Assembly (NCBI GenBank): GCA_032718475.1
Contig: JAUCBJ010007054.1
Span: 1-52,406, forward strand
Source: Nemertoderma westbladi
Lineage: Eukaryota > Animalia > Xenacoelomorpha
Reading direction: 5' to 3'
DNA length: 52,406 nucleotides
Shown here: piece after piece, positions 1,720 through 28,718 of the stretch
Layout of the letters: each line of letters opens with the position of its first letter
Position numbering within the stretch: the stretch's first letter is position 1
Translations under genes and position numbers: made by a program
The notes under the pieces: model-generated
Told to the model about the DNA's origin: nothing
Seen by the model: only the letters and a program-made list of their open reading frames with translations
Databases searched by the model: none

Positions 1720-1933
1720 TATTGAGGACTGATTTACCCAGTTTGGAATACGGCGGGAGATTCAAACTGGAATACCGGATTCGCCAACTGGCAGACTGTC
1801 ATAATACAGTATTAATTAGTATCTATTGAGGAATATTATTGGTTACGGGTATTACTGTTAATTATCACCTCTTATGGCAATAATATAAACATTTCAGTAA
1901 TAGCTATTATTTATGCTTTTCCCGAACTCAATA
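1720..1933 (+). mobile_element. Gypsy 3' LTR (214 bp) with TATTGAG...CTCAATA terminal inverted repeat
   Basis: Starts after the PPT and ends exactly where satellite A begins. The ends form a 7-bp perfect inverted repeat. The partner LTR is outside the window. Confidence 0.75.
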
Positions 1934-4900
1934 GATAGGAGCACCGCCCACACATACATTCTGGTAGCAAATAGGAGCAGCGCCCACACCTACATTCCGG
2001 TAGCAGATAGGAGCAGTGCCCACACATAGGTACATTCCGGTAACAGATAGAAGCAGCACCCACACATACATTCTGGTAGCAGATAGGAGCAGCGCCCACA
2101 CCTACATTCCGGTAGCAGATAGGAGCAGTGCCCACACATAGGTACATTCCGGTAACAGATAGGAGCAGCACCCACACATACATTCTGGTAGCAGATAGGA
2201 GCACCGCCCACACCTACATTCCGGTAGCAGATAGGAGCAGTGCCCACACATAGGTACATTCCGGTAACAGATAGGAGCAGCACCCACACATACATTCTGG
2301 TAGCAGATAGGAGCAGCGCCCACACCTACATTCCGGTAGCAGATAGGAGCAGTGCCCACACATACATTCCGGTAGCAGATAGGAGCAACACCCACACATA
2401 CATTCCGGTAGCAGATAGGAGCAGTGCCCACACATAGGTACATTCTGGTAGCAGATAGGAGCAGCGCCCACACCTACATTCCGGTAGCAGATAGGAGCAG
2501 CGCCCACACATACATTCTGGTAGCAGATAGGAGCAGCGCCCACACATACATTCCGGTAGCAGATAGGAGCAGCGCCCACACATACATTCTGGTAGCAAAT
2601 AGGAGCAGCGCCCACACCTACATTCCGGTAGCAGATAGGAGCAGTGCCCACACATAGGTACATTCCGGTAACAGATAGGAGCAGCACCCACACATACATT
2701 CTGGTAGCAGATAGGAGCAGCGCCCACACCTACATTCCGGTAGCAGATAGGAGCAGCGCCCACACATACATTCCGGCGGCAGATAGCAGCAGCGCCCACA
2801 CATAGGTACATTCCGGTAACAGATAGGAGCAGCACCCACACATACATTCTGGTAGCAGATAGGAGCAGCGCCCACACCTACGTTCCGGTAGCAGATAGGA
2901 GCAGCGCCCACACATACATTCTGGTAGCAAATAGGAGCAGCGCCCACACCTACATTCCGGTAGCAGATAGGAGCAGTGCCCACACATAGGTACATTCCGG
3001 TAACAGATAGGAGCAGCAACCACACATACATTCTGGTAGCAGATAGGAGCAGCGCCCACACCTACATTCCGGTAGCAGATAGGAGCAGCGCCCACACATA
3101 CATTCCGGCGGCAGATAGGAGCAGCGCCCACACATAGGTACATTCCGGTAACAGATAGGAGCAGCACCCACACATACATTCTGGTAGCAGATAGGAGCAG
3201 CGCCCACACATACATTCCGGCGGCAGATAGGAGCAGCGCCCACACATAGGTACATTCCGGTAACAGATAGGAGCAGCACCCACACATACATTCTGGTAGC
3301 AGATAGGAGCAGCGCCCACACCTACATTCCGGTAGAAGATAGGAGCAGCGCCCACACATACATTCTGGTAGCAAATAGGAGCAGCGCCCACACCTACATT
3401 CCGGTAGCAGATAGGAGCAGTGCCCACACATAGGTACATTCCGGTAACAGATAGGAGCAGCACCCACACATACATTCTGGTAGCAGATAGGAGCAGCGCC
3501 CACACCTACATTCCGGTAGCAGATAGGAGCAGCGCCCACACATACATTCCGGCGGCAGATAAGAGCAGCGCCCACACATAGGTACATTCCGGTAACAGAT
3601 AGGAGCAGCACCCACACATACATTCTGGTAGCAGATAGGAGCAGCGCCCACACCTACATTCCGGTAGCAGATAGGAGCAGCGCCCACACATACATTCTGG
3701 TAGCAAATAGGAGCAGCGCCCACACCTACATTCCGGTAGCAGATAGGAGCAGTGCCCACACATAGGTACATTCCGGTAACAGATAGGAGCAGCGCCCACA
3801 CATACATTCCGGTAGCAGATAGGAGCAGCGCCCACACATACATTCTGGTAGTAGGTAGGAGCAGCGCCCACACATACATTCTGGTAGTAGGTAGGAGCAG
3901 CGCCCACACATAGGTACATTCCGGTAACAGATAGGAACAGCGCCCACACATACATTCTGGTAGCAGATAGGAGTAGCGCCCACACCTACATTCCGGTAGC
4001 AGATAGGAGCAGCGCCCACACATACATTCCGGCGGCAGATAGGAGCAGCGCCCACACATAGGTACATTCCGGTAACAGATAGGAGCAGCGTCCACACATA
4101 CATTCCGGTAGCAGATAGGAGCAGCACCCACACATACATTCTGGTAGCAGATAGGAGCAGCGCCCACACATACATTCTGGTAGGAGCAGCGCCCACACCT
4201 ACATTTCGGTAGCAGATAGGAGCAGTGCCCACACATAGGTACATTCCGGTAACAGATAGGAGCAGCACCCACACATACATTCTGGTAGCAGATAGGAGCA
4301 GCGCCCACACATAGGTACATTCCGGTAACAGATAGGAGCAGCACCCACACATACATTCTGGTAGCAGATAGGAGCAGCGCCCACACCTACATTCCGGTAG
4401 CAGATAGGAGCAGCGCCCACACATACATTCTGGTAGGAGCAGCGCCCACACCTACATTCCGGTAGCAGATAGGAGCAGTGCCCACACATAGGTACATTCC
4501 GGTAACAGATAGGAGCAGCACCCACACATACATTCTGGTAGCAGATAGGAGCAGCGCCCACACATACATTCCGGTAGCAGATAGGAGCAGCGCCCACACC
4601 TACATTCCGGTAGCAGATAGGAGCAACGCCCACACATACATTCTGTTAGCAGATAGGAGCAGCGCCCACACCTACATTCCGGTAGCAGATAGGAGCAGTG
4701 CCCACACATAGGTACATTCCGGTAACAGATAGGAGCAGCACCCACACATACATTCTGGTAGCAGATAGGAGCAGCGCCCACACCTACATTCCGGTAGCAG
4801 ATAGGAGCAGCGCCCACACATACATTCCGGCGGCAGATAGGAGCAGCGCCCACACATAGGTACATTCCGGTTACAGATAGGAGCAGCGTCCACACATACA

Positions 4901-7900
4901 TTCCGGTTACAGATAGAAGCAGCGCCCACACCTACATTCCGGTAGCAGATAGGAGCAGCGCCCACACCTATATTCCGGTAGCAGATAGGAGCAGCGCCCA
5001 CACATACATTCCGGTAGCAGATAGGAGCAGCAACCACACATACATTGTGGTAGCAGATAGGAGCAGCGCCCACACCTACATTCCGGTAGCAAATAGGAGC
5101 AGTGCCCACACATAGGTACATTCCGGTAACAGATAGGAGCAGCGCCCACACATACATTCTGGTAGCAAATAGGAGCAGCGCCCACACCTACATTCCGGTA
5201 GCAGATAGGAGCAGCGCCCACACATACATTCCGGTAGCAGATAGGAGCAGCGCACGGTAGCAGATAGGAACAGCGCCCACACATAGGTACATTCCGGTAG
5301 TTGATAGGAGCAGCGCACGGTAGCAGATAGGAGCAGCGCCCACACATAGGTACATTCCGGTAACAGATAGGAGCAGCGCCCACACTTACATTCCGGTAGC
5401 AGATAGGAGCAGCGCATGGTAGCAGATAGGAGCAGCGCCCACACATAGGTACATTCCGGTAACAGATAGGAGCAGCGCCCACACATACATTCCGGTAACA
5501 GATAGGAGCAGCGCCCACACATACATTCCGGTAGCAGATAGGAGCAGCGCCCACACATACATTCTGGTAACAGATAGGAGCAGCGCCCACACATACACTC
5601 CGGTAGCAGATAGGAGCAGCACCCACACATACATTCTGGTAGCAGATAGGAGCAGCGCCCACACATACATTCTGGTAGCAGATAGGAGCAGCGCCCACAC
5701 ATACATTATGGTAGCAGATAGGAGCAGCACCCACACATACATTCTGGTAGCAGATAGGAGCAGCGCCCACACATACACTCCGGTAGCAGATAGGAGCAGC
5801 ACCCACACATACATTCCGGTAGCAGATAGGAGCAGCGCCCACACATACATTCTGGTAACAGATAGGAGCAGCGCCCACACATACACTCCGGTAGCAGATA
5901 GGAGCAGCACCCACACATACATTCTGGTAGCAGATAGGAGCAGCGCCCACACATACATTCTGGTAACAGATAGGAGCAGCGCCCACACATACACTCCGGT
6001 AGCAGATAGGAGCAGCACCCACACATACATTCTGGTAACAGATAGGAGCAGCGCCCACACATACACTCCGGTAGCAGATAGGAGCAGCACCCACACATAC
6101 ATTCTGGTAGCAGATAGGAGCAGCGCCCACACATACATTCTGGTAGCAGATAGGAGCAGCGCCCACACATACATTATGGTAGCAGATAGGAGCAGCACCC
6201 ACACATACATTCTGGTAGCAGATAGGAGCAGCGCCCACACATACATTATGGTAGCAGATAGGAGCAGCACCCACACATACATTCCGGTAGCAGATAGGAG
6301 CAGCGCCCACACATACATTCTGGTAGCAGATAGGAGCAGCGCCCACACATACATTCCGGTAGCAGATAGGAGCAGCGCCCACACCTACATTCCGGTAGCA
6401 GATAGGAGCAGCGCCCACACATACATTCTGGTAACAGATAGGAGCAGCGCCCACACATACATTCCGGTAGCAGATAGGAGCAGCGTCCACACATACATTC
6501 TGGTAACAGATAGGAGCACCGCCCACACATACATTCCGGTAGCAGATAGGAGCAGCGCCCACACATACATTCTGGTAACAGATAGGAGCAGCGCCCACAC
6601 ATACATTCCGGTAGCAGATAGGAGCAGCGTCCACACATACATTCTGGTAACAGATAGGAGCACCGCCCACACATACATTCCGGTAGCAGATAGGAGCAGC
6701 GCCCACACATACATTCCGGTAGCAGATAGGAGCAGCGTCCACACATACATTCTGGTAACAGATAGGAGCACCGCCCACACATACATTCCGGTAGCAGATA
6801 GGAGCAGCGCCCACACATACATTCTGGTAACAGATAGGAGCAGCGCCCACACATACATTCCGGTAGCAGATAGGAGCAGCGTCCACACATACATTCTGGT
6901 AACAGATAGGAGCAGCGCCCACACATACATTCCGGTAGCAGATAGGAGCAGCGTCCACACATACATTCTGGTAGCAGATAGGAGCAGCGCCCACACAAAC
7001 ATTCTGGTTACAGATAGGAGCAGCGCCCACACATACATTCTGGTAGCAGATAGGAACAGCGCCCACACATACACTCCGGTAGCAGATAGGAGCAGCGCCC
7101 ACACCTACATTCTGGTAGCAGATAGGAGCACCGCCCACACCTACATTCTGGTAGCAGATAGGAGCAGCGCCCACACATACACTCCGGTAGCAGATAGGAG
7201 CAGCGCGCACACATACATTCCGGTAGCAGATAGAAGCAGCGCCCACACATACATTCCGGTAGCAGATAGGAGCAGCGCCCACACATACATTCTGGTAGCA
7301 GATAGGAGCAGCGCCCACACATACATTCCGGTAGCAGATAGGAGCAGCGCACGGTAGCAGATAGGAACAGCGCCCACACATAGGTACATTCCGGTAGTTG
7401 ATAGGAGCAGCGCACGGTAGCAGATAGGAGCAGCGCCCACACATACATTCCGGTAGCAGATAGGAGCAGCGCCCACACATACATTCCGGTAGCAGATAGG
7501 AGCAGCGCCCACACATACATTCTGGTAGCAGATAGGAGCAGCGCCCACACATACATTCTGGTAGCAGATAGGAGCAGCGCCCACACATACATTCCGGTAT
7601 CAGATAGGAGCAGCACCCACACATACATTCTGGTAGCAGATAGGAACAGCGCCCACACATAGGTACATTCCGGTAGTTGATAGGAGCAGCGCACGGTAGC
7701 AGATAGGAGCAGCGCCCACACATAGGTACATTCCGGTAACAGATAGGAGCAGCGCCCACACATACATTCTGGTAGCAGATAGGAGCAGCGCCCACACCTA
7801 CATTCTGGTAGCAGATAGGAACAGCGCCCACACATACATTCTGGTAGCAGATAGGAACAGCGCCCACACATAGGTACATTCCGGTAGTTGATAGGAGCAG

Positions 7901-7933
7901 CGCACGGTAGCAGATAGGAGCAGCGCCCACACA
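1934..7933. repeat. Minisatellite A, 36-bp unit GTAGCAGATAGGAGCAGCGCCCACACATACATTCCG, roughly 160 copies
   Basis: Direct tandem repetition. It has 40-bp variants (+GGTA) forming a 112-bp higher-order unit on the left, nearly pure 36-mers at about 5460-7350, and 23-bp variants near 5230-5420 and 7330-7910. Confidence 0.98.
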
Positions 7934-8225
7934 GGCAGTTAAAATGTTTAAATGCTGAAACCGACGCAGTCAGACTGACTCATTTTACCGTACGAGCCTG
8001 TACCCGTTCGCGGTCCAGGAACCGGTCGTAGCTTTTTGTAGTTTTACCTTTTATTTATTTTAACTACCTTCATTGATTTTAGTGGTACTGTACCCTGCAG
8101 CGCCGGCACATTGGTGCTATACGGTAGCTGCAGTTTTAATAACGGTCTACCGGTACTGTACTGTCATTTTACTTACCATATCGTCGTACACAAGACTCGT
8201 CGTACCGGGTTTGGGATTCAATAAA

Positions 8226-11200
8226 ATGGATAAACTTAAAAAGATGAACACCAAGCGACTAAAACTTTTGTTGAGCAATCGGAATCTTTCCACCTCTGGA
8301 TCGCGAGGAGAACTGCTTCTTCGAGCTGAAACAGCAAACCTTTGTTCTGAGCCCGAAGATCCTAAATTAACGGACGAGTCGCTCGATATTTCCAGTAGAC
8401 CCGTGGATCGGACGGCCAACATCTCCAGTAAACCTTTGGATCAGTCCAATATCTCCACCAGTAAACCCGAGGATCGGCTGGATACCTCCAGTATACCTGT
8501 GGACCAGCTCCATGCCTCCAGTAAACTCACGGATCAGCCGGGTTCCTCTAGTAAACCCGCGGATCAACTCGAAATCTTAAGTAAACCTGCGGATCAGCTC
8601 GAAACCTTAAGTAAACCCGCGGATCAGCTCGAAACCTTAAGTAAACCCGCAGATCAGCTCGAAACCTTAAGTAAACCCGCGGATCAGCTTGATACCCCCA
8701 GTAAACCTGTGGATCAGCTTGATACCTCCAGTAAACCTGTGGAACAGCTAGATACCTCCAGTAAACCTGTGGATCAGCTAGATACCTCCAGTAAACATGC
8801 AGATCAGCCGGTTACCTCTAGTAAACCTGTGGATCAGCTCGAAACCTCAAGTAAACCAGTGGATCAGCTTGATACCTCCAGTAAACATGCAGATCAGCTG
8901 GTTACCTCTAGTAAACCTGTGGATCAGCTAGATTCCTCCTGTAAACATGAAGATCAGCTGGTTACCTCTAATAAACATGTGGGTCAACTCGATACCTCCA
9001 GTAAACCCGCGGATCAGCTTGATACCTCCAGTAAACCTGTGGATCAGCTAGATACCTCGACTAAACCGGTGGATCAGCACGATAGCTCCAGTAAACCTAT
9101 GGATCTGGTCGATACCTCTAGTAAACCTGTGGATCTGGTCGATACCTGTAGTAAACCAGCGGATCAACTTGATATGGAACCTGTGGTTCAGCTCCATACC
9201 TCCTGTAAACCTGTGGATCTGTCTGATACCACCAGTAAACCTGTGGATCAGCTTGATACATCCAGTAAACCTGTGGATCAGCTAGATACCTCCAGTAAAC
9301 ATGCAGATCAGCTGGTTACCTTTAGTAAACCTGTGGATCAGCTAGATACCTCCTGTAAACATGAAGATCAGCTGGTTACCTCTAATAAACATGTGGGTCA
9401 ACTCGATACCTCCAGTAAACCCGCGGATCAGCTTGATACCTCCAGTAAACCTGTGGATCAGCTAGATACCTCGACTCAACCGGTGGATCAGCACGATAGC
9501 TCCTGTAAACCTGTGGATCTGGTCGATACCTCTAGTAAACCTGTAGATCTGGTCGATACCTGTAGTAGACCAGCGGATCAACTTGATATGGAACCTGTGG
9601 TTCAGCTCCATACCTCCTCCTGTAAACCTGTGGATCTGTCTGATACCACCAGTAAACCTGTGGATCAGCTCGATACCTCCCGTAAACCTGTGGATCAGCA
9701 TGATACACGTCCCATGGATCAGCCTGATAAACCTCCAATGGATCAGCCAATCATTGACAATAAACCGATGGATATTGTATATTTAGGCCAAGTGATATGC
9801 AGTATACCATCTGACGCTACTGATATCTCCACTACACCGGAGTTTCCTTTGCGTGGTCCACTGGCTAGAGTGAGCCCGGGCATCCATACAGCAATGACCT
9901 CTAGCCAGGAGGATGTCCAGCTGATTGATAAATCCATAAAAGAATCTGTAACTGTGGGATGTAATAGATCAGCAGGCTCACCTACAACAAATAGTATAGA
10001 TAATGGTAGTGGTTCTATTACAGGTACAACTGCTGCCTATCCAGATGTCCCAGCCCAGGCGAGCCCGGGCATCCATACAACAATGAACCCAGGCCGGGAT
10101 GTCAATCGCACCACCACACTAAGTCCTGATGCTTTGCCATTCAACCCCCCAATAGTAGAAGATCTGCAGGAGGATGGTCGCTGGTTGCTACGAAGTCCCA
10201 AACCGAGTAATAAAAAGTCTAAAGATACTACAATAACTCACTTTTTCCACCCTATTAAATCAGAAACGGTGAAAAACAAATTGAATGATGAATCCAATAA
10301 ATCAGTTTATATGGTGCACCCGGACAGCTCACAGCAACCTTTATCAGGTAAGATATTAGTTCATCTAATGCAGGAATATCTGTCAGATTTACCTACAGAC
10401 CCATTGGGACCTGTCGACCCTTTGTGGTCATCAATGGAAACATTAAATGGGAAGTCATGGATTGATGACAATGTTATTGACAGTTTTCTGTCTATAATTA
10501 GTATTGCTTTACCACACACCGCTTCGATTATGGCTGTCCTCACAACTAAGCTGCAAAATCCTAACTATGACAAGCTGAGTGCCATAAAGTATGTTGCACG
10601 TCATTACTTGAGTTCCTGCAAAAAAACAGAAACACAGCTGATGTTTTTCCCAGAATGCACCAACCACCATTGGGTCTTACATGTTGCGGACACCAATCAT
10701 AAAACAGTATACATGCTGAACTCTATGCCATCGTCTAATACACCATCTAAAACAACTGTTGAGATAGCCAACCTCTTGAACCACATTGACCTATACAATA
10801 GGGTGAACCAGCACCAGAATACAACACTTAAATGGACAACAACTGTGAGCGAATGTTCGAATAGTTTTCCCAAGCAAAATAATACATGGGACTGTGGTGC
10901 GTATGTGTGTCTGTATGTATTGGCCATTGCTCAAAATCTAAACACAGTATCTAAAATCCATAAAGACAGCACATCCTGTAGACAATGGATTAAAAACTGT
11001 CTTTCAGATATGAAAATTGTGCATCATAAAGACGTTATCTTCGATTTCATGTATGTACCAGGGTTTAATGATGAATTTGGTGATATTAATGGGGACAATG
11101 GAACCTTAGATGACAATACACCTCAACCGGCTCCAGCTGGCTTTAGTGAACTGTGTGGAATTCTGCAGCATCCAAGAAAAGATGCAATCAACTTTCTGTT

Positions 11201-12521
11201 GAGAAACCACCAAGAAGAGAACATGATAATTCGCCAACAATTATTCGACTCTCTGCAGAAAATTATGTCCCCACTACAGTCAGTAACCCTAAAACTACAA
11301 CACCGCTCAGGTGCCACTCCTCTAGCAACAGACATATTTGAGCTTCTACGCTGTCTCTCAGCAGGGGCTATCTCAGAGGCCTGCCGTAGACGCCTAAGGA
11401 AGGTTGACTTGAATACAACGGGGATCACTTTAGAGGGCATTAGGAATGACCTCATTACAGCTGTGTCCACATTGCAGGCACGTCTTGGTCTCATCGAAAC
11501 GGAGAATTGTTCCTTAAAAGAGAAATATGGATATATCCAAGATGAACTTAGTATAGAACGCCACCAACGAATGATCTTGGAACAAAAAATTACTAGGCTA
11601 GAAGGACAACTGCAAGCATGTGAACCTTCAGGTCGAAGCAGTGAGGAAATGACTGACAAACGAAAGAAGACTCAAGTAGGCTCCCAAGACGAGTACCTTA
11701 TCATTGATTCTATATCAGCAGGGGAAAGCACACCAACCAATCCAAGAGATCAACCTCACCACGGCAATCATGATGCCAAGCCAAACGATTTGGACTGGTC
11801 CATCACTTCCAGGCGGAGAAGTTATCAAAGAAAGGATTTTTCTGCTGGTTGCCCTCCCAAATTGGTGGGACAAACAAACAACAGATTTGCCCCTCTACTC
11901 TCAGATGAAGCAGACAATGCAGCTACAATTTCAAATTCACAGTACTTAAAGGCAATTTCAAATCAGCTTCATACAAAGCAAGATACTGGTTCAAGGATTG
12001 AGAGCTCAAGCTCTAGAACAAATAATCGTAAATCAACAAGGGCTGAACTGGGTACACATAGACACTCCAGTCCTGCCAGAAGTATCAGGCATCATAGACG
12101 AGGGAAAACACTCAACAAGCAACACGAACCTAATGAATTAAAACAGGGCTCAAGCAAACAGAGCTGGTCCGAACAATTATCAAAACAAACAACTGTCTTT
12201 ATCAGCGGTGTGCCATTTGAGTACTCTGAGGATGATATAGTTGATTACTTAAATTATCATCGTATAACTACCCACCGTATAACAACACGTAACTCCAGAG
12301 ACTCTAGGAATATGAAGATATCAGTGGATTCAGGGATCGGTGATAATCTAAAAGTACCTGGTTTCTGGCCAAGAGGAATAACGTGTCGGGACTGGATCTA
12401 CCATCCTCGACACATCCACCAAGTTAACCACCACATGGAGCAACGTGATCGGTACCACAATGCAGTCAATTCAGGGTATAGAGATAGACCGTGGGCTCAC
12501 CAGCCCTTTCACCAAGACTAA
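8226..12521 (+). CDS. LINE ORF1 (1431 aa from first ATG): SAP motif, 10-aa repeats, Ulp1/C48-like peptidase, coiled coil, RRM-like C-terminus
   Basis: SAP-like KMNTKRLKLLLSNRNLSTSGSRGELLLRAE; (SSKPVDQLDT)n; LNGKSWIDDNVID...NHHWVLHVAD...YMLNS...PKQNNTWDCGAYVC; heptads near 11430-11620; TVFISGVP...MKISV...FWPRGITCRDW. Confidence 0.9.
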   Translation: MDKLKKMNTKRLKLLLSNRNLSTSGSRGELLLRAETANLCSEPEDPKLTDESLDISSRPVDRTANISSKPLDQSNISTSKPEDRLDTSSIPVDQLHASSKLTDQPGSSSKPADQLEILSKPADQLETLSKPADQLETLSKPADQLETLSKPADQLDTPSKPVDQLDTSSKPVEQLDTSSKPVDQLDTSSKHADQPVTSSKPVDQLETSSKPVDQLDTSSKHADQLVTSSKPVDQLDSSCKHEDQLVTSNKHVGQLDTSSKPADQLDTSSKPVDQLDTSTKPVDQHDSSSKPMDLVDTSSKPVDLVDTCSKPADQLDMEPVVQLHTSCKPVDLSDTTSKPVDQLDTSSKPVDQLDTSSKHADQLVTFSKPVDQLDTSCKHEDQLVTSNKHVGQLDTSSKPADQLDTSSKPVDQLDTSTQPVDQHDSSCKPVDLVDTSSKPVDLVDTCSRPADQLDMEPVVQLHTSSCKPVDLSDTTSKPVDQLDTSRKPVDQHDTRPMDQPDKPPMDQPIIDNKPMDIVYLGQVICSIPSDATDISTTPEFPLRGPLARVSPGIHTAMTSSQEDVQLIDKSIKESVTVGCNRSAGSPTTNSIDNGSGSITGTTAAYPDVPAQASPGIHTTMNPGRDVNRTTTLSPDALPFNPPIVEDLQEDGRWLLRSPKPSNKKSKDTTITHFFHPIKSETVKNKLNDESNKSVYMVHPDSSQQPLSGKILVHLMQEYLSDLPTDPLGPVDPLWSSMETLNGKSWIDDNVIDSFLSIISIALPHTASIMAVLTTKLQNPNYDKLSAIKYVARHYLSSCKKTETQLMFFPECTNHHWVLHVADTNHKTVYMLNSMPSSNTPSKTTVEIANLLNHIDLYNRVNQHQNTTLKWTTTVSECSNSFPKQNNTWDCGAYVCLYVLAIAQNLNTVSKIHKDSTSCRQWIKNCLSDMKIVHHKDVIFDFMYVPGFNDEFGDINGDNGTLDDNTPQPAPAGFSELCGILQHPRKDAINFLLRNHQEENMIIRQQLFDSLQKIMSPLQSVTLKLQHRSGATPLATDIFELLRCLSAGAISEACRRRLRKVDLNTTGITLEGIRNDLITAVSTLQARLGLIETENCSLKEKYGYIQDELSIERHQRMILEQKITRLEGQLQACEPSGRSSEEMTDKRKKTQVGSQDEYLIIDSISAGESTPTNPRDQPHHGNHDAKPNDLDWSITSRRRSYQRKDFSAGCPPKLVGQTNNRFAPLLSDEADNAATISNSQYLKAISNQLHTKQDTGSRIESSSSRTNNRKSTRAELGTHRHSSPARSIRHHRRGKTLNKQHEPNELKQGSSKQSWSEQLSKQTTVFISGVPFEYSEDDIVDYLNYHRITTHRITTRNSRDSRNMKISVDSGIGDNLKVPGFWPRGITCRDWIYHPRHIHQVNHHMEQRDRYHNAVNSGYRDRPWAHQPFHQD
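8385..9740 (+). repeat. Coding 30-bp minisatellite in ORF1 (SSKPVDQLDT), with a 414-bp higher-order duplication
   Basis: Unit CCAGTAAACCTGTGGATCAGCTTGATACCT. The KHADQLVT...MEPVVQLH block recurs at 8883 and 9297. Confidence 0.95.
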
Positions 12522-15500
12522 CACCGCTGAATGTGGTTTGGAGGAACAGCTGAGGTTGTGCACTTTTAATACCCATGGATTTGCGGCAAACTCTAAATAC
12601 ATTGCTGAGCTCTTAACCAGCTGTGATTTTCTAGGCCTCCAGGAACACTGGCTCGATGACATGGAGTGCAAAGAATCAATGTGTCTACTGGATGCCAACT
12701 TCAACTGTATATATTCAGTAAGCCACTTAATGAGCAATCCTAACCGTATACGTGGTGCAGGTGGTGTAGCCCTTTACATGAGGAAGGATAAAGTGAATAG
12801 TTTCAGTGAAGTGAAATCTGGAGATAATATTGTTGGCGTAATTGCTCATCTTCACTCCTCAAACGAGCCATTTCTGATTCTTTCAGCCTATGCCCCAGAT
12901 TCGGGGAAACCTCAAGAAGTCTACGATGAGTTCCTGGGCCGCCTCTATGGGTTACTGGAGCAGTATTCAGCATGCATCCCCATCATCCTCACTGATGCCA
13001 ATGCTGATCTTGGTAGTCTGCAGGGAAACAGATTCCTCACTGAGAAACCATCTTACAGAGGCCGGATTCTTAACTCTTTTCTAAACGATAATAATTTAAG
13101 GGCCATCGATACTCACAAGCAGTTCACTGGGCCAGTTATAACGTTTTATGGGCACAACGGTGGTCAGTCATATATTGACCATATATTGACTCCAATGTTA
13201 AACATGGTTTTGATAAAAGATGGCTGCGTATATGAAGAAGATCCTGGTAGTAACTACTCAGATCACGTACCAGTAATTGCGACATTTTCGGTTATGTTCA
13301 ACAATGACCATTCAGGGCAGAAAGTGAAGCCAACCACAAGGAGGAAAATCATGAAATTTAACTGGGCTAAAGCAACTGAAGCCCAAAAGGAAAGATATAA
13401 AGTTGCTGTTGACACACTTCTATTGGAGAATATCCATAAAATAAAATCTGAACTAGGTGGAAAACCTTCTACTGCAACTCTCGATGGTGTGATGGAGAAC
13501 ATACAGTCTGCAATTCATGATGCTGCAATTCAGAATATTCCAGTAGCAAAGCGAAAGACTGGTATAAAAAACATAAGAATTCGGTCCAAAATTCTACACC
13601 AGAGTTCGAAAACAACACAACAATTGTACCAACTATGGAGTGAAGAAGGAAAAGGCAATGAACACCCCCTTGCTACAGTGTTCAAGGAGTCCAAACGACG
13701 CACAAGGCGTATCAAAAATTTTCTCTCTAAAAACTCAGTCGCACAATCAATACATAAATGGGCCAACAAATTCAACTCAAATCCGAAATACTTTTGGGCA
13801 AAGGTAAATAAATCAAACGGAAATGGTATACCCCCCTCGATGGAAGATAAGTTGCGCGATAGTTATGTGAGAAAATTTTCCAACAATGCCTCCAAGTTGA
13901 GTGATGAACTACTGACTGACATGGACTTGGCGTGTGCAAACTCAGTGGTGCCACAAATATCCTCACTGACAGTGAAGAGAGCAATTGCAGCACTATCTAC
14001 AGGGAAAGCCCCTGATAACTCTTCGCTCACTATTGAGCATTTGCTACATTTGAACCCAGAGCCAATATGTGAAATCTTAGCAATTGTGTTCAACCTCTCA
14101 TTCATGCTGAAGAAAGTTCCTAATATATTTGGACATTCGGTTCTGACAAGCCTCTATAAGGGCAAGCATCGGGATGTTTACTCTCCTAAATCGTATCGCC
14201 CAATATCATCAATCAGCATTTGGGCCAAATTGTTTGAACATGTTGTGCTGAAGAGCTTCCTTAGCAGCATAGATCTCCATGAGAACCAGACAGCCTACCG
14301 TAGTCACATTGGGTCTGATGTAGTCATTGCAACGATGTTAGAGTGCATTGAGCATCTGCGGATGAAGAACAAGTCAGTATATCTCTGTCAGCTTGATATA
14401 GAGTCAGCATTCGACACTGTTGACTATAACGTTCTGGGCTGCAAAATGCTGGAGTGTGGAATAAACCCTCACATTGTCGCTACTGTCCTTAACTATTACA
14501 CCAGAAGCCTCTATTTTCTCAAGTTCGGCAGTGATGTTGATGCTATAGGCATCCATGTTTGTAGAGGCCTGAAACAGGGATCACTCCTCTCACCAGTCCT
14601 CTTCAATTTGTATACTAAATCCATTCTTGATGATTTGAAAAGTTCCAACCTCGGATGCTGGATAGACACACACTGGTTGGGAACAATCTCTTATGCTGAT
14701 GATTTCTTGTTAGTCTCTAACACGCAGGAGGGAATGGAGAAAATGTTTACCATGTTCCATAATAGCGCAGCAGAAATGAAACTTACAGTAGAAAAATCCA
14801 AAGTAAACTGGACTGTGTTCAACAATCACCAAGGCTGTCATAGGCCAACATTTCTTTATCTGAACGGCAAAGTGGTTCCAAGATGCGAAAAGTTAAGCTT
14901 CTTAGGGTACGATTTGGCTACTGTTATGACTAACCCCTTAAGCAAGACCCTGCAGACGATAGCGGCACTAAGCCAGACCCTTAAGAACAAGGGATGGACC
15001 TCTGAATGGCTGCCTGTTGAAACCGTATCTCACCTCTGGAGAACAGTTGCACTGCCTGTAATTTTATACGACCTGAGATTACACATTGGTTACCTCTCCC
15101 AGAACGACATGGATAGACTCGATGCCGCCCACAGAAATGCTCTGCGCAGCTTACTCTACATTGGGCGCTATGTTAGCAACCCCACACTGGAGCACCTTAC
15201 GAGCATCAATGCCCTATCAGTGGAAGCAATGCGACAAGCGGTGGGAACCATGGTGCGAATTATAGATTGTCCCAGCAAGGCTTTACAGGGATCGTTTATT
15301 AACTGCTCTGTTGCTAGTCTCGATGGAACCTCTGGGTCACGGTATCGGGGAGTGCTAAACTCTTTTATAAAAGCGCTATCTATCTTTCCCCTTCCACAGC
15401 TTGAGTCCCTATTGATGTACCGCTATGACAAGAAGTCCCTGATGAATCGTATCTCGCACGGAGCAGCATTGACTGGGGATAAGGCCAAGGCCAGCTTTAT

Positions 15501-15579
15501 CGAAGAAACATTTAATCTTAGAACATTGAGTCTCGGAGAAAAAAGAACCAGAATTAGGGACTACTTCGGTATTGTGTAA
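12460..15579 (+). CDS. LINE ORF2: apurinic endonuclease plus reverse transcriptase
   Basis: APE motifs TFNTHG, LQEHWL, SAYAP, TDANAD, SYIDHI, SDHVPV. RT motifs SYRPIS, LDIESAFDTV, GLKQGSLLSPVLFNLY, YADD, FLG. The first ATG (12460) overlaps the end of ORF1 by 62 nt. Confidence 0.96.
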   Translation: MQSIQGIEIDRGLTSPFTKTNTAECGLEEQLRLCTFNTHGFAANSKYIAELLTSCDFLGLQEHWLDDMECKESMCLLDANFNCIYSVSHLMSNPNRIRGAGGVALYMRKDKVNSFSEVKSGDNIVGVIAHLHSSNEPFLILSAYAPDSGKPQEVYDEFLGRLYGLLEQYSACIPIILTDANADLGSLQGNRFLTEKPSYRGRILNSFLNDNNLRAIDTHKQFTGPVITFYGHNGGQSYIDHILTPMLNMVLIKDGCVYEEDPGSNYSDHVPVIATFSVMFNNDHSGQKVKPTTRRKIMKFNWAKATEAQKERYKVAVDTLLLENIHKIKSELGGKPSTATLDGVMENIQSAIHDAAIQNIPVAKRKTGIKNIRIRSKILHQSSKTTQQLYQLWSEEGKGNEHPLATVFKESKRRTRRIKNFLSKNSVAQSIHKWANKFNSNPKYFWAKVNKSNGNGIPPSMEDKLRDSYVRKFSNNASKLSDELLTDMDLACANSVVPQISSLTVKRAIAALSTGKAPDNSSLTIEHLLHLNPEPICEILAIVFNLSFMLKKVPNIFGHSVLTSLYKGKHRDVYSPKSYRPISSISIWAKLFEHVVLKSFLSSIDLHENQTAYRSHIGSDVVIATMLECIEHLRMKNKSVYLCQLDIESAFDTVDYNVLGCKMLECGINPHIVATVLNYYTRSLYFLKFGSDVDAIGIHVCRGLKQGSLLSPVLFNLYTKSILDDLKSSNLGCWIDTHWLGTISYADDFLLVSNTQEGMEKMFTMFHNSAAEMKLTVEKSKVNWTVFNNHQGCHRPTFLYLNGKVVPRCEKLSFLGYDLATVMTNPLSKTLQTIAALSQTLKNKGWTSEWLPVETVSHLWRTVALPVILYDLRLHIGYLSQNDMDRLDAAHRNALRSLLYIGRYVSNPTLEHLTSINALSVEAMRQAVGTMVRIIDCPSKALQGSFINCSVASLDGTSGSRYRGVLNSFIKALSIFPLPQLESLLMYRYDKKSLMNRISHGAALTGDKAKASFIEETFNLRTLSLGEKRTRIRDYFGIV

Positions 15580-15849
15580 TACACTGTGTTCCCTGTGCAG
15601 TATTAATGACTCTGCATCGTTTGGAAGCAGAGCAAACCCCGAGGTCATAATTCTTTTTTTTTTCATTTGCATCCATCCATGGCTATTTTAAATGCTTTGT
15701 TCTTCCTTTTAATTTGAATATATTGTATCCTTTATTTTGTATCACTGGTGCAGTGTGTGAAACTTTGTTCGCTTTTTATTTCTTATTAACGTGCAGCGAA
15801 CTTTTACTGTTGTCGGCTGGGTCCGAATTAAATGAATTAATTAATTAAT

Positions 15850-18800
15850 TAACATCTACTCTTTCTACCCACTAATATCTACTCTTTCTACCCCACAGAC
15901 CGCTCCCACTAACATCTACTCTTTCTACCCACAGACCGCTCCCACTAACATCTACTCTTTCTACCCACTAATATCTACTCTTTCTACCCCACAGACCGCT
16001 CCCACTAATATCTACTCTTTCTACCCACAGACCGCTCCCACTAACATCTACTCTTTCTACCCACAGACCGCTCCCACTAACATCTAATCTTTCTACCCAC
16101 TAACATCTACTCCTTCTACCCCACAGACCGCTCCCACTAACATCTACTCTTTCTACCCACTAATATCTACTCTTTCTACCCCACAGACCGCTCCCACTAA
16201 TATCTACTCTTTCTACCCACAGACCGCTCCCACTAACATCTACTCTTTCTACCCTCAGATCGCTCCCACTAACATCTACTCTTTCTACCCACTAATATCT
16301 ACTCTTTCTACCCCACAGACCGCTCCCAATGATATTTACTCTTTCTACCCCACAGACCGCTCCCACTAACATCTACTCTTTCTACCCACTAACATCTACT
16401 CTTTCTGCCCCACAGACCGCTCCCACTGATATCAACTCTTTCTACCTGCTAACATCTACTCTTTGTACCCACATACCGCTCCCGGTAACATCTACTCTTT
16501 CTACCCACAGACCGCTCCCACTAACATCCATTCGTTCTACCCCACAGACCGCTCCCACTGATATCTACTCTTTCTATCTGCTAACATCTACTCTTTCTAC
16601 CTACAGACCGCTCCCTCTAACATCTTCTCTTTCTACCCACAGACCGCTTCCACTGATATCTACTCTTTCTACCTGCTAACATCTACTATTTCTACTCCAC
16701 AGACCGCTCCCACTGATATCTACTCTTTCTACCCACAGACCGCTCCCTCTAACATCTACTCTTTCTACCCACAGACCGCTCCCTCTAACATCTACTCTTT
16801 CTACCCACAGACCGCTCCCAATGATATCTACTCTTTCTACCTGCTAACATCTACTCTTTCTACCTGCTAACATCTACTCTTTCTGCCCCACAGACCGCTC
16901 CCACTGATATCTACTCTTTCTACCCACAGACCGCTCCCTCTAACATCTACTCTTTCTACCCACAGACCGCTCCCACTGATATCTACTCTTTCTACCCACA
17001 GACCGCTCCCAATGATATCTACTCTTTCTACCTGCTAACATCTACTTTTTCTACTCCACAGACCGCTCCCACTAACATCTACTCTTTCTACCTGCTAACA
17101 TCTACTCTTTATATCCACAGACCGCTCCCACTAACATCTACTCTTTCTACCTGCTAACATCTACTCTTTCTACCCACAGACCGCTCCCACTGATATCTAC
17201 TCTTTCTACCCACAGACCGCTCCCAATGATATCTACTCTTTCTACCTGCTAACATCTACTCTTTCTACTCCACAGACCGCTCCCACTAACATCTACTCTT
17301 TCTACCTGCTAACATCTACTCTTTATATCCACAGACCGCTCCCACTAACATCTACTCTTTCTACCTGCTAACATCTACTCTTTATATCCACAGACCGCTC
17401 CCGCTAACATCTACTCTTTCTACCCCACAGACCGCTCCCACTAACATCTACTCTTTATATCCACAGACCGCTCCCGCTAACATCTACTCTTTCAACCCCA
17501 CAGACCGCTCCCGCTAACATCTACTCTTTCTACCCACAGACCGCTCCCACTAACATCTACTCTTTCTACCTGCTAACATCTACTCTTTATATCCACAGAC
17601 CGCTCCCGCTAACATCTACTCTTTCTACCCACTAACATCTACTCCTTCTACCCACAGACTGCTCCCACTAACATCTACTCTTTCTACCTGCTAACATCTA
17701 CTCGTTCTACCCCACAGACCGCTCCCACTAACATCTACTCTTTCTACCCACTAACATCTACTCCTTCTACCCACAGACCGCTCCCACTAACATCTACTCT
17801 TTCTACCTGCTAACATCTACTCGTTCTACCCCACAGACCGCTCCCGCTAACATCTACTCTTTCTACCCCACAGACCGCTCCCACTAACATCTACTCTTTC
17901 TACCCACAGACCGCTCCCGCTAACATCTACTCGTTCTACCATACAGACCGATCCCACTAACATCTACTCTTTCTACCCACAGACCGATCCCACTAACATC
18001 TACTCTTTCTACCCACAGACCGCTCCCACTAACATCTACTCTTTCTACCCACAGACCGCTCCCACTAACATCTACTCTTTCTATCGACAGACCGCTCCCA
18101 CTAACATCTACTCTTTCTACCCACAGACCGCTCCCACTAACATCTACTCTTTCTACCTGCTAACATCTACTCTTTCTACCTGCTAACATCTACTCTTTAT
18201 ATCCACAGACCGCTCCCGCTAACATCTACTCTTTCTACCCACAGACCGCTCCCACTAACATCCATTCGTTCTACCCACAGACCGCTCCCGCTAACATCTA
18301 CTCTTTCTACCTGCTAACATCTACTCTTTCTACCTGCTAACATCTACTCTTTCTACCTGCTAACATCTACTCTTTCTACCTGCTAACATCTACTCTTTCT
18401 ACCTGCTAACATCTACTCTTTATATCCACAGACCGCTCCCGCTAACATCTACTCGTTCTACCCACAGACCGCTCCCGCTAACATCTACTCTTTCTACCCA
18501 CAGACCGCTCCCGCTAACATCTACTCTTTCTACCCACAGACCGCTCCCGCTAACATCTACTCTTTCTACCCACAGACCGCTCCCGCTAACATCTACTCTT
18601 TCTACCCACAGACCGCTCCCGCTAACATCTACTCTTTCTACCCACAGACCGCTCCCGCTAACATCTACTCTTTCTACCTGCGAACATCTACTCTTTCTAC
18701 CTGCTAACATCTACTCTTTCTACCCAACAGACCGCTCCCACTAACATCTACTCTGTCTATCCACAGACCGCTCCCACTAACATCTACTCTTTCTACCCAC

Positions 18801-20381
18801 AGACCGCTCCCACTAACATCTACTCTTTCTACTCCACAGACCGCTCCCACTAACATCTACTCTTTCTACCCAACAGACCGCTCCCACTGATATCTACTCT
18901 TTCTACCTGCTAACATCTACTCTTTCTACCCACAGACCGCTCCCACTAACATCTACTCTTTCTACCCAACAGACCGCTCCCACTAACATCTACTCTTTCT
19001 ACCCCACAGACCGCTCCCACTAACATCTACTCTTTCTACCCAACAGACCGCTCCCACTGATATCTACTCTTTCTACCTGCTAACATCTACTCTTTCTACC
19101 CAACAGACCGCTCCCACTGATATCTACTCTTTCTACCTGCTAACATCTACTCTTTCTACCCACAGACCGCTCCCACTAACATCTACTCTTTCTACCCAAC
19201 AGACCGCTCCCACTAACATCTACTCTTTCTACCCCACAGACCGCTCCCACTAACATCTACTCTTTCTACCCAACAGACCGCTCCCACTGATATCTACTCT
19301 TTCTACCTGCTAACATCTACTCTTTCTACCCAACAGACCGCTCCCACTAACATCTACTCTGTCTATCCACAGACCGCTCCCACTAACATCTACTCTTTCT
19401 ACCCAACAGACCGCTCCCACTAACATCTACTCTTTCTACCCAACAGACCGCTCCCACTGATATCTACTCTTTCTACCTGCTAACATCTACTCTATCTACC
19501 CACAGACCGCTCCCGCTAACATCTACTCGTTCTACCCCACAGACCGCTCCCGCTAACATCTACTCTTTCTACCCACAGACCGCTCCCACTGATATCTACT
19601 CTTTCTACCTAGTAACATCTACTCTTTCTGCCCCACAGACCGCTCCCGCTAACATCTACTCTTTCTACCCACAGACCGCTCCCACTAACATCTACTCTTT
19701 CTACCCACAGACCGCTCCCACTGATATCTACTCTTTCTACCTAGTAACATCTACTCTTTCTGCCCCACAGACCGCTCCCGCTAACATCTACTCTTTCTAC
19801 CCACAGACCGCACCCACTGATATCTACTCTTTCTACCTGCTAACATCTACTCTTTCTACCCACAGACCGCTCCCGCTAACATCTACTCTTTCTACCCACA
19901 GACCGCTCCCACTGATATCTACTCTTTCTACCTAGTAACATCTACTCTTTCTGCCCCACAGACCGCTCCCACGTATATATACTCTTTCTACCTGCTAACA
20001 TCTACTATTTCTACTCCACAGACCGCTCCCACTGATATCAACTTATTCTACCTGCTTACATCTACTCTTTCTACCCCACAGACCGCATCCAATGATTTAT
20101 ACTCTTTCTACCTGCTAACATATACTCTTTCTATCGACAGACCGCTCCCGCTAACATCTACTCTTTCTACCCACAGACCGCTCCCGCTAACATCTACTCT
20201 TTCTATCCACAGACCACTCCCACTGATATCTACTCTTTCCACTTGGTAACATCTACACTTTCTACCCCACAGACCGCTCCCACTGATATCTACTCTTTCT
20301 ACCTGGTAACATCTACTCTTTCTGCCCCACAGACCGCTCCCACGTATATATACTCTTTCTACCTGCTAACATCTACTCTTT
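15850..20381. repeat. Minisatellite B (left arm), 36-bp unit CTAACATCTACTCTTTCTACCCACAGACCGCTCCCA with 37-bp and 23-bp variants
   Basis: Direct tandem repetition, interrupted mid-unit by the BEL/Pao element. Confidence 0.98.
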
Positions 20382-21598
20382 TGTAAAAGCTTTTGCTGAA
20401 TTGTCCGGTTATTTTTCCTTATTTTTCCCGTAAAATACTCTGTAGTTGGTTTACCAGGCATAAAAAGGCCGTGTCCTTGCTGTACTGGTGTTTTAGCGGA
20501 CATAAAAGCTATTTCTTCTGTATTTGTACTTTAGAGGACATAATCCGTAATTCCGTGACGTAAAAGCTCGATACTCTTGAAAACAGTGTCACTACCATGA
20601 CGACGGCTAGCAGCTGATATTGCCACGTCGACGTTTCTTTGTTTCTCTGTTCTCTCGTTGTTCAGGTTGACCAATCAGAGCGTTTGTTGTCTCTGTGTTG
20701 GAGGTATATACAGAAACTCAGTAGTTCAGTGTTATTTTTTTGCCCAGAGCCTAAGAACCGGCTTTGGCACCTCCGTGTTTTCAGTTTTTAGTCTTACACT
20801 AGTAGGTTTAATTATAAAGGGCATATATCCTTTAACTCATGGAATCACTGATCTGGGAATACACTGACTGTTGACACACGGCTTTTAATAACTGCTGAAA
20901 CTGCTAAAATTACCTGCTCAATCGATACTGTGTACTGCTATTTGTTGTCGGTTATTCATTATATTGGTTGATGAATTATTATATTGGAATAACGAGAAAT
21001 AACCCCGAAAACCCAATATTCTTGATATACCGAAGGTAAGAGAGAAAGGTTACCAATAACGATTGTGACTTATGTTAAAGTGGTTTGAAGTGAATCTAAT
21101 GTTATTTGATAGACCCTACATGAGTCAGTCTGTGTTCCTTTTATAGGTGACTAAAATCAGTGAAGATTGGCAGATTAGTGTGCAGTATTGTGCAGCATTG
21201 TGTATGAGTGAGTCTGTTAAAGAAGCAATTCCTAAAGAATGCGCCATATATGTGAATTATAATTAAGCCATATCGTTGTGAGTAGTTTAAGTCATAACTC
21301 TGTTTATATAGATAAAGCGCCACGTCCTAAAGGAACTGTTAATATTCCCGAAGGTAAATAATATTGTCAGAGATTATATAATACTGTCAGTCGAATAATA
21401 CATTAGGCTTACATAGCAATAAAATTAAACCGTCGAACCCAATCTCCCGGGAATATCCAGCGGGTGAATGATCGCGCACAGATTGGTTTCGACTAGTGTA
21501 GTGAATCAAATACTTGTCATAGACTAAAAACCGATTTAATATCTAGAAGACATCTTAATTTGGTGGGTTAAACTGCCAAAGGTCTGAAAGCGCGAACA
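20382..21598 (+). repeat. 5' LTR (1217 bp)
   Basis: TGTAAAAGC...GCGCGAACA. Near-identical to 31774-32990 (three substitutions seen by eye). Contains CCAAT at 20671 and TATATA at 20705. Confidence 0.97.
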
Positions 21599-21883
21599 TT
21601 AAAGGATATAGCTTCTGTATTGCAGTAGGCAATAAAGCTGAAGTACCGGCAACCGGTACCCAGTAGGCCTGACTACCTAACCACCCGGACCGGTACCTAC
21701 AGCAGTACAGGTACAGCAGTATTATTCGATTTTGATAATTATATACCGGTAGGCCTTAATAATTAATCAGGGAGGGCCCGCCCTGGTTTTTTATTGAGAT
21801 TTTTACTTATTTCTGTCAAGTTTTATTTGTTTGTAGGCCAGTATTGAACAGAAGGCGTGTAAGCCTGATCAGATTGTACAGAC

Positions 21884-26700: not shown

Positions 26701-28718
26701 CCGTTTCTAGGAGAAGGGTAATACCAGTATGTTATACCGACGACGGTGAAACCCAAACTTCTCAAGGAGAGGACAGCGGGAAAGACACTGACAGATCTTA
26801 TGTCAATAAAATGCCTAAAGATCAGGTAAGTAAATCCAAGTCTCGACCCAATGACAGAAGGGAACCGGTACAAAAAACCCCTCCTACGTCTCCTAAAAGA
26901 ATTCAGGTGAGAAAGCCCGAGGAAAGAACAAGTGTGCACCACACAGCACATGTTAAAGTAAGTAACATCAAGCCCAAATGTGTGCTGTGCGACGGGCCCC
27001 ACCGTTTAAATGCGTGTGATAAATTCCTGAGGAAATCACTAAAGGATAGACGTGAAGTCATGTGGGATAAGCGGTTGTGTTATAATTGCCTCAGACGAGG
27101 ACACCAACGGCGAACCTGTAACTCCGACGCAAGGTGTGCAAAGTGCGGCGCAAAACATCATATCTTGTTGCACACGGAATTCGAACGAAACAGCCCGAGT
27201 CAGGTAAGTGAGTCCGAACTATATGTCCAATTCAGTGATGTGAACGACACTGATCAATCTGAGATGGAAGGATTCTATACGGACGAGTTCTCCGACCAAA
27301 ACGAATCCTGTTACCTAATAAACACCACCGCAGTGTATCGAACACTCGTGTATGAGAAAGACACAGACAGCGACCTTACCTTAACTACTTCCGATCAACA
27401 ACCATCTTGGAAAGCGCCAACTTCCAATATAGGAATCCGAGAATTTCCTGTAGTCCAGTTACGGGTCCACGGACCTCAGAAGAGCTATATAGTGAACGCC
27501 CTCCTGGACTCCGGTAGCACAGGAACATTCATCGATAAAGAACTAGCCGAAGTCATCTTTGCTGGACAACCCAAGTTCCGAACCAAGCTAAACATGTCAG
27601 GGATCATGCAGGTTTGGAATTCTACTGTAGCTGCCGACTATTATATAGGTGAGTTGTCCACCCCACAGGATAAACTAGGAGAATATAGTATAAGGTCAGT
27701 GAAAATGGTGGCTATAAAGAACTTCGCTACTACTCAAGCAGACCTTTATAATTGGGAAGAGGATGAGAGCATCCAACATCTTAACATACCTCGATTCCAG
27801 ACTGATTATCCTGGATTGCAAATACTCATCGGCCAAAACGCGCATGAGGCGCTGGAGACATTAGAGAAACGACCTGCTCAACCGCAGCCACTACAGACCT
27901 ATGCGGTAAGAACTAGAGTAGGTTGGTACCTTACTGGACCTTCCCGTAGAACGCTCAGGGAAAGACTGCTTCAAGATCGCGTCTGCCAGGTGAGTGAATG
28001 GGAAGATGATACTAGTGAGGGAGATGACCCAACTGAGGGAACACCACACTCCTCAGATAATGACAATCTTAGCTCCAATGTAGATCAATGGAGATATTGC
28101 CCCAAGAAGTTTAATCCAACTGACATCGCTTCCAGAGGAGCAACTCCTCAAGAACTGACAGATACTACAGACCGGTTAGGTGAACCCGACTTCCTGAGTA
28201 AGGAGGATGAATGGCCTCCCCATCTTACTCCGACTGAGATTAGACCAGCCAAGGGAGCGGAGAAAGTCAAACCTAAAACCCGGACGGGTGGATCGGAGTT
28301 ATTTGAACCCGGGATAGATCTGTCGGTATTACATATTGCCAGGGACGACGCCGTGGATCTGGACCTCCCCACCGCGAGTGGATCCTTCATGAAGATCAGA
28401 GAGAGCGATTGGAGCTCTGGAACATCAGACGTCTCGCAGGGACTCTCACCTCTCCTGCAGAGAGCGACGGACCACTATAGCTCCTGGAATCGGCTTTGTG
28501 ACGCCGTCATATACTTTGAGCGATGTTTCTATCGTCACTATTCCAGGACGAAGAGGAAACCTGGAATTGTATTCAGGATGCAGCGACTCAATCACCCAGT
28601 CGGTCGTTTGTGTTTATCGGAAGGGAATGGAGGACTCTCCGGAAACTGTGGAAGGCAAGATTCTCTTCCCACGACCACCTCCCTAATCCTTCAAACATCT
28701 AGGGACTCCATAACGTAA
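23769..28718 (+). CDS. BEL/Pao gag-protease polyprotein with in-frame pol remnants, broken by one TGA (24537-24539)
   Basis: ORFs 23769-24539 and 24555-28718 share a frame. It has an Ala/Glu coiled coil, DUF1759-like KFNGDEMKW...EKLRYL, three BEL zinc knuckles (CVLCDGPHRLNAC, CYNCLRRGHQRRTC, CAKCGAKHHILLH), protease ALLDSGSTGTFI and RTRVGWYLTGP. There is no RT motif. Confidence 0.9.

Follow-up and report, generated by a model that had tools for sequence, protein, structure and literature searches.

A SUMO Protease-Like Domain and a Likely SAP Motif in the Predicted ORF1 Protein of an APE-Type LINE from Nemertoderma westbladi

Introduction

Protease domains of the Ulp1/SENP type (peptidase family C48) recur in unrelated transposable elements, and their purpose has been left as a suggestion (PMC2836005). 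Among the retrotransposons without long terminal repeats (non-LTR), the NeSL elements of nematodes and Utopia-1_TSP possess an N-terminal Ulp1-like protease (PMC4640811). The DNA transposons Ginger1 and MuDR/Mutator also carry a Ulp1/C48 domain, which is thought to aid transposition (PMC2836005). For the long interspersed nuclear elements (LINEs) with an apurinic/apyrimidinic endonuclease (APE), the first open reading frame (ORF1) has been classified into types I–V, whose modules are the RNA recognition motif (RRM), the coiled coil, the PHD domain, and an esterase (PMC4120745, PMC3905857, PMC13343379). Here, we describe an APE-type LINE in a stretch of 52,406 nucleotides from Nemertoderma westbladi (contig JAUCBJ010007054.1 of assembly GCA_032718475.1, positions 1–52,406; hereafter the window), whose ORF1 is predicted to add a C48 protease to the known modules.

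A first-pass annotation, made by reading the letters of the window, had described an intact 1431-residue ORF1 beside an intact ORF2 with APE and reverse transcriptase (RT), and had divided the ORF1 protein (ORF1p) into an N-terminal SAP-like motif, about 45 repeats of ten residues, a C48-type protease signature, a coiled coil, and an RRM-like end. The analysis reported here agrees with this layout in all its parts, with the SAP motif and the coiled coil as likely assignments and 43 repeats counted. The proposed profile search returned C48 above its cut-off, and the structure prediction gave a modeled SENP-type fold. A substitution in the catalytic triad was absent from that description.

An Ulp1/SENP-Type Protease Domain in ORF1

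The protease domain lies in the middle of ORF1p (Table 1). The Pfam family PF02902 matches residues 745–916 with an E-value of 1.4e-7 and 32 bits when the whole protein is scanned, and with 36.7 bits when the isolated stretch is used (cut-off 20.7), which bears out the signature read earlier (WIDDNVID at 10458, HW at 10668, and QNNTWDCG at 10875). Yeast Ulp1 is the closest sequence match in the PDB (E 1.5e-8). Among 1.84 billion representatives searched, 161 matches were obtained; of the best 150, 149 are to the protease and one is to the RRM-like end, and the counts among 149 relatives given below rest on these best 150 of 161.

The residues that align with the active site of Ulp1 are shared by most of these relatives: His815 by all 149, the tunnel residue Trp816 by 147, Gln884 of the oxyanion site by 146, Cys890 by all 149, and the tunnel residue Trp745 by 122. 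The third residue of the triad is Asn832 and not Asp. At this position, Asp is present in 129 relatives and Asn in 16, with His, Gln, and Cys retained in each of the 16 Asn sequences; Asn is also found in three of 11 NeSL proteases. Asn is therefore a natural variant, which lowers the assignment as a canonical SENP but not that as a C48 protease. Fifteen of the 16 columns that are conserved in at least 80% of the relatives are identical in the query, the exception being the exchange of Asp for Asn. Since these columns are kept at a median identity of 22% (best 30%), the domain is likely to be under selection for activity.

A structure model of the domain, built on an alignment of 98 relatives, reached a predicted local distance difference test (pLDDT) score of 85.7; single-sequence folding without an alignment gave 34.5. 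The model best matches SENP5, SENP3, SENP1, and Ulp1, with Z scores of 23.9–20.9 and root-mean-square deviations (rmsd) of 2.0–3.7 over 186–192 residues. SENP5 leads with Z 23.9 and rmsd 2.0 over 186 residues, a match within the CE-clan fold. The NEDD8 protease follows at Z 18.2, lower than the SENPs, and Foldseek ranks the structures likewise. When the positions that we take to contact SUMO (a small ubiquitin-like modifier) in Ulp1 are aligned to the query, Trp448, Asp451, Thr477, and Arg493 are kept, Glu455 and Arg489 have similar residues, and Phe474 is replaced by Val. The protease is quite probably catalytically active.

The element is also present in public data, with no RNA data set among those listed as containing it, which speaks neither for nor against its expression. 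Between 89% and 96% of sampled element words occur in three DNA sequencing runs (X1–X3) from two studies with one species label, one of which may be the source of the window itself. The catalytic His and Cys, whose loss in other copies would have spoken against the first-pass annotation, are unchanged in the contigs that cover them. The active site is covered by difference-free contigs in X1 and X3, and the X2 contig over it has ten differences along its length, none of them at catalytic codons. The variant test used the 19 coding differences of X1–X3 among 40 of 119 difference rows, setting aside 13 rows that fall in the 3′ untranslated region as well as eight coding rows confined to a further run, X5. 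Synonymous changes account for 11 of the 19, where 25% would be expected (p 0.002), and for seven of 13 in ORF1 and three of three in the protease domain.

Architecture of ORF1 and Integrity of the Element

Both frames of the LINE are open on the forward strand within a span of about 7934–15852, and ORF1 and ORF2 overlap by 62 nt. In ORF2, Pfam recognizes the endonuclease (PF03372, E 2.7e-7) and the RT (PF00078, E 1.7e-26), and the catalytic motifs are readable in the translation. An N-terminal APE and a central RT in ORF2, an upstream ORF1, a simple-repeat 3′ tail, and the slope in contig depth described below all agree with an APE-type non-LTR retrotransposon, and the element is real, intact, and likely functional. 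Its motifs suggest RTEX or Proto2 as the probable clade.

Table 1. Features of the LINE and its immediate flanks in the window.
Feature	Position	Strand	Basis or remark
Flank, 36-bp satellite array A	1933..7933	.	outside the element, on present evidence
5′ untranslated region, as in this copy	7934..8225	+	satellite A stops at 7933
ORF1, 1431 aa	8226..12521	+	open reading frame
SAP motif, aa 4–36, likely DNA-binding	8235..8333	+	PF02037
30-nt (10-aa) repeat rich in Ser, Thr, Asp, and Pro, 43 copies in frame	8423..9706	+	repeat analysis
Ulp1/SENP-type C48 protease domain, ~aa 737–930	10434..11015	+	Pfam, PDB match, alignment, model
Active-site residues Trp745, His815, Asn832, Gln884, Cys890	His815 10668; Asn832 10719; Gln884 10875; Cys890 10893		
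Likely coiled coil, aa ~1078–1141	11457..11648	+	heptad score, weak Pfam coiled-coil matches
RRM-like domain with terminal FWP-x-x-x-x-C-R-x-W motif, aa 1320–1394	12183..12407	+	profile of relatives
ORF2, 1039 aa counted from the first ATG	12460..15579	+	APE aa 34–269; RT aa 576–818, YADD
3′ untranslated region	15580..15852	+	ends in a short (AATT)4 tail, running into satellite B
Flank, 36/23-bp satellite array B	15850..20381	.	repeat analysis

ORF1p is about three to four times as long as a usual ORF1 protein. Its SAP motif scores 24.4 bits (E 2.3e-5) against PF02037 in a scan confined to the first 65 residues, just above the cut-off of 23.9, and 17.4 bits, under the cut-off, when the whole protein is used; the SAP domains of Tho1 are a weak match to the same N-terminus (E 0.7). 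The repeat array that follows is likely a flexible spacer. It contains no in-frame stop, and among 37 units the distinct variants comprise 13 synonymous and 26 nonsynonymous ones (33% synonymous against 25% expected), with no clear coding constraint beyond the open frame. In the linker ahead of the protease, a 39-nt in-frame direct repeat occurs at 9872–9910 and 10061–10099 (85% alike).

Behind the protease, the highest heptad scores fall in windows that begin at residues 1073–1083, and there are basic clusters, possible nuclear signals, at residues 1054 and 1145. The RRM-like end has weak matches alone in Pfam (PNMA_N, E 0.047). A profile of five relatives from which the query was left out matches it with E 3.8e-11 and 29.2 bits, against 3.7 for the best of 500 shuffles. 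A coiled coil upstream of an RRM-like domain is the order of type II, whose C-terminal domain (Transposase_22) has no match in the Pfam scan of ORF1. The C-terminal 473 residues have no sequence match among solved structures, and residues 700–1431 have no usable match in the structure Atlas.

The 5′ end of the element is not fixed; it starts at or before 7934, directly after the 6-kb satellite A. In the X1–X3 contigs, the match begins at 7950, upstream of which lies other, nonsatellite DNA that differs from the window's flank in all three runs, and behind 15840 the 3′ flank differs in X1 contigs as well. Because the flanks differ between copies, the element represents a family inserted at more than one site and is not bound to the satellite. 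No target-site duplication was found, in the sense of a common word longer than 5 nt between the flanks searched, with the 5′ end not fixed and both flanks made of satellites. From 9750 to the 3′ end, the contig depth, which is not equal to copy number, rises from 47 to 345 in X1, from 103 to 260 (unevenly) in X2, and from 104 to 359 in X3; the corresponding values at the SAP motif are 47, 77, and 69. Such a slope is what 5′-truncated, recently spreading LINE copies would give. Run X5 covers the 3′ part only, in one gapped contig, which is no proof that the rest is absent.

Two further observations concern dispersed relatives of the element. Loose ends at 12622–12640 and 14570–14615 point to several sister LINE families of the same species that share endonuclease and RT motifs. 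Moreover, 70 bp of the 5′ untranslated region (8083–8152) are common to another dispersed repeat in X1–X3, with about 85–90% identity.

Relatives and Origin of the Protease Arm

Genomic context is available for one related element only, that of L001, a contig of 7 kb from a bacterial genome bin; by their motifs, this element and the ORF1-like proteins named below are probably RTEX- or Proto2-like. Its ORF2 is 22% identical to that of the query, its ORF1 has 623 residues, and it ends in a simple-repeat tail. Positions 855–6199 of L001 form a complete two-ORF LINE of eukaryotic type in a bin labelled Sedimenticola, a label also carried by the proteins P0166 and P0167; this LINE is likely host DNA inside a bacterial bin. 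The RRM-like end is common to the ORF1-like proteins of L001, P0166, P0167, P0168, and P0143, and the C48 profile gives no score in any of the five. Two of them, P0167 and P0143, seem to be truncated N-terminally and are uninformative on C48 and SAP, whereas L001, P0166, and P0168 are full-length and contain neither. Given that the full-length relatives share the RRM-like end but lack C48, the arm composed of SAP motif, repeats, and protease was likely gained in this lineage, as far as the sequences tell. A helical N-terminal domain common to the ORF1-like relatives has no match in the query ORF1.

Seen from the protease, the picture is complementary: the RRM-like end is absent from all 149 protease relatives, and neither APE nor RT occurs in any of the 52 Pfam-scanned relatives out of 150 matches. 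The partner domains in these 52 are MULE and DDE transposases, DNA polymerase B, PHD, and ankyrin. A word-based protein search gave no match for ORF1 residues 720–1431 among 7993 candidates and one protein for ORF2 among 7990, and no relatives were found in two metagenome-contig scans and one viral-contig scan.

A lead on the donor comes from a sequence feature near the triad. In S5 Fig of PMC4640811, a Cys two residues after a conserved Pro is present in 11 of 11 NeSL rows and in none of ten cellular rows. The query domain has both this Pro-x-Cys and the triad Asn (10650–10721) and, together with relatives, delineates a Pro-x-Cys ... Asn subtype of C48 domains that is common to NeSL proteases. 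Among 147 relatives, the two features co-occur (Asn in ten of 26 with Pro-x-Cys versus six of 121 without, p 2e-5, kinship not corrected). A quick tree of 150 C48 domains puts the query on a long branch without a resolved place, so that no donor can be named.

Proposed Role and Alternative Explanations

We propose, in line with one of the two roles put forward in the first-pass annotation and with a probability of roughly 40%, that the ORF1 protease is a tethered deSUMOylase that would weaken SUMO-dependent silencing at the element's own loci. The coiled coil and the RRM-like core would bind the element RNA and oligomerize, as other ORF1 proteins do; coiled coils and RRMs of ORF1 proteins bind and package element RNA (PMC4120745, PMC3905857). 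With the RRM-like domain on the RNA and the SAP motif on DNA, the protease could swing on the repeat spacer over nearby chromatin and remove its presumed substrate, SUMO, through a Cys-His-Asn triad. The element would profit by evading SUMO-dependent repression where its copies are transcribed or have just been inserted.

Host PIAS ligases combine SAP with a SUMO-adding domain, and a SAP motif joined to a SUMO-removing domain in ORF1 would mirror them. In Drosophila, silencing guided by PIWI-interacting RNAs (piRNAs) probably begins on nascent RNA. It requires SUMO, which is deposited by Su(var)2-10, a PIAS ligase with a SAP domain of its own that works via the nascent RNA (10.1101/533091). 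An ORF1p sitting on the same nascent RNA and stripping SUMO would counter this step. A more specific version, an 'anti-PIAS' ORF1 that docks on its own RNA and DNA to remove the SUMO laid by the small-RNA pathway, with a mobile protease of the Pro-x-Cys/Asn subtype perhaps from a NeSL-like source, appears doubtful. If this version is true, the element would provide a defined, mutable, and enzymatic means by which a retrotransposon counters SUMO-dependent heterochromatin. With a protease fused to its RNA-binding protein and a likely DNA tether, such a LINE would allow one to ask directly whether the SUMO step is opposed by transposons, and one Cys-to-Ala change would separate an enzymatic from a structural role.

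Several points weigh against the deSUMOylase reading. The SAP motif is borderline, and silencing by tethered Su(var)2-10 is not lowered when SAP is removed (10.1101/533091). The layout of SAP, repeats, protease, coiled coil, and RRM is seen in one family only. The relatives were chosen as matches to the query domain, which inflates shared motifs, and the model alignment was made of C48 proteins, so that the fold match leans toward that family. Within the domain, the aromatic strand motif FNSFFY of Ulp1 is degenerate and Glu810 stands where 110 of the 149 relatives have Ile or Val. The variant test is a limited sample, and the eight coding differences confined to X5 are mostly nonsynonymous, with one of eight synonymous. 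Finally, frameshifted copies are present among the run contigs, and one X2 contig joins 10678 to 11223, which would remove Asn832, Gln884, and Cys890, though the short side of this junction has only 29 letters.

An active protease might instead serve the retrotransposition particle or the insertion site, deconjugating SUMO, ubiquitin, or NEDD8 from ORF1p, the ORF2 protein (ORF2p), restriction factors, or proteins of DNA repair while the particle is transported and target-primed reverse transcription takes place. Everything that speaks for activity applies here as well, and the domain is fused to a protein expected to coat RNA. SUMO consensus sites are present at Lys678 of ORF1p and Lys329 of ORF2p, a DNA-repair function has been proposed for transposon Ulp1 and OTU domains (PMC2836005), and the fold also occurs, with lower Z scores, in the NEDD8 protease and in bacterial deubiquitylases. 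A SAP motif at the end of a 430-residue spacer would be dispensable for such a role, although it might assist in locating target DNA, and we regard the role as unlikely.

That the domain is weak or dead, either binding SUMO only or being a recently decaying passenger, is harder to defend. The degenerate strand motif, Glu810, the exchange of Asp for Asn, and the possible deleted copy in X2 all fit such decay, as does a Pfam score of 32–37 bits, far under that of most relatives; related full-length ORF1-like proteins manage without C48. Against this stand the retained His, Gln, Cys, and Trp745 and the near-complete set of conserved columns at 22% identity, the natural occurrence of Asn, and the synonymous nature of all three differences in the protease domain, which together make loss of function improbable.

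Even less probable is that the protease cleaves the element's own proteins, as viral members of the clan do, freeing the SAP-repeat arm from the RNA-binding core. This alternative, which the first-pass annotation had also offered, is weakened by the absence of Gly-Gly from ORF1p and by the location of two of the three Gly-Gly of ORF2p inside the endonuclease. In addition, ORF1 and ORF2 lie in different frames, so that there is no polyprotein to process. The vaccinia peptidase I7 cleaves after Ala-Gly, and Ala-Gly sites are found in the ORF1 linkers (e.g., residues 583–584). The I7 profile is a weak match (E 0.068), and the fold is common to viral processing proteases (Z 9.6–12.5), but SUMO proteases rank far above these.

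A one-off chimera or assembly artefact, in which the protease of a nested DNA transposon or a host gene was joined to the LINE here only, is highly improbable and was rejected: the copy does lie between two different satellite arrays without a detected target-site duplication, and none of the listed contigs spans the whole element, but ORF1 is a single open frame of 4.3 kb, X1 contigs bridge the protease-to-core (10953–11643) and ORF1–ORF2 (11657–13882) borders, the sequence recurs in two studies, no terminal inverted repeats frame the domain, and neither a depth step nor a loose end occurs at its border among the rows listed. A nested DNA transposon was likewise rejected, with no transposase family in either ORF and no inverted pair around the domain within 9750–15850.

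Other Features of the Window

The remainder of the window is rich in repeats. Three satellite types are present, with arrays at 32991–40184 and 45428–52406 besides the two that flank the LINE. Satellites A and B have 36-bp units and 23-bp sub-periods, and the third type has a 52-bp unit; an alignment of A with B by short words only showed no relation between them. Satellite A has long stop-free frames, which are no evidence of genes. A 1217-bp unit occurs in two near-identical copies (20384–21600 and 31776–32991, 99.75%) and as a partial copy at 76–741 (94%). Both full copies adjoin satellite B arrays, so that the unit may belong, together with the satellite, to a larger block that is mobile or duplicated. 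The partial copy is adjoined by a fragment at about 740–1648 that, by its motifs, is presumably the integrase portion at the end of an LTR element of the Gypsy type.

A BEL/Pao-like LTR element lies at 23769–28718. Its 1289-residue ORF matches DUF1759, a zinc knuckle, and an aspartic protease, with no RT match, and is preceded by a 256-residue ORF without a family match. A likely host gene is represented by a first exon that resembles a signal peptide, at about 41046–41124, and by an exon rich in Val, His, and Gly that contains Gly-Val-Gly-Ala repeats, at about 42123–42885; its predicted product resembles a structural or cuticle-type protein. No Rfam families were found in the window.

Comparison with Known Systems

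The host proteases yeast Ulp1 (1EUV) and human SENP1, 2, 3, and 5 share the fold and the His, Gln, and Cys of the query. They differ from it by an identity of about 17–24%, by Asp in place of Asn, and by the internal position of the query domain in a retrotransposon protein. The combination of SAP with C48 is known from Zisupton. Ginger1, MuDR, and Zisupton are DNA transposons that encode a DDE transposase and are bounded by terminal inverted repeats; the LINE described here showed no sign of either.

Capture of Ulp1 by transposons is a known theme, and its setting in an APE-type ORF1, which was unfamiliar in the first-pass annotation too, appears not to have been described in the literature searched, a scope to which Repbase Reports, Dfam, subscription papers, and most supplements were external. 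A family of this layout may already be described in Repbase, Dfam, or subscription papers. Ulp1 combined with RTEX gave no literature match. A term look-up found no mention of Ulp in the accessible text of PMC4120745, PMC5203782, PMC10294476, PMC13343379, PMC5408684, and PMC5753468, and that of PMC11203168 and PMC5718144 yielded nothing on Ulp1 in an APE-type ORF1.

The closest relatives by sequence, L001 and the four ORF1-like proteins, share the coiled coil and the same RRM-like end, and L001 in addition a related ORF2 and a short simple-repeat 3′ tail, whereas the full-length members among them lack the protease and the SAP motif. Among the described ORF1 types, type II resembles the query in having a coiled coil upstream of one RRM-like domain, and the ORF1 proteins of CR1, L2, and RTEX resemble it in having captured an enzyme domain, their esterase. 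Protease and SAP are not among the domains named for these types, and the terms protease, Ulp, SAP, and peptidase are absent from the accessible text of PMC4120745. NeSL and Utopia come closest in pairing a non-LTR retrotransposon with a Ulp1-like protease. Membership in NeSL was rejected, as these elements encode a single protein with a C-terminal restriction-like endonuclease (PMC4640811), whereas the LINE of the window has two ORFs and an APE, and its predicted protease resides inside ORF1 alongside a SAP motif, a repeat array, a coiled coil, and an RRM-like domain.

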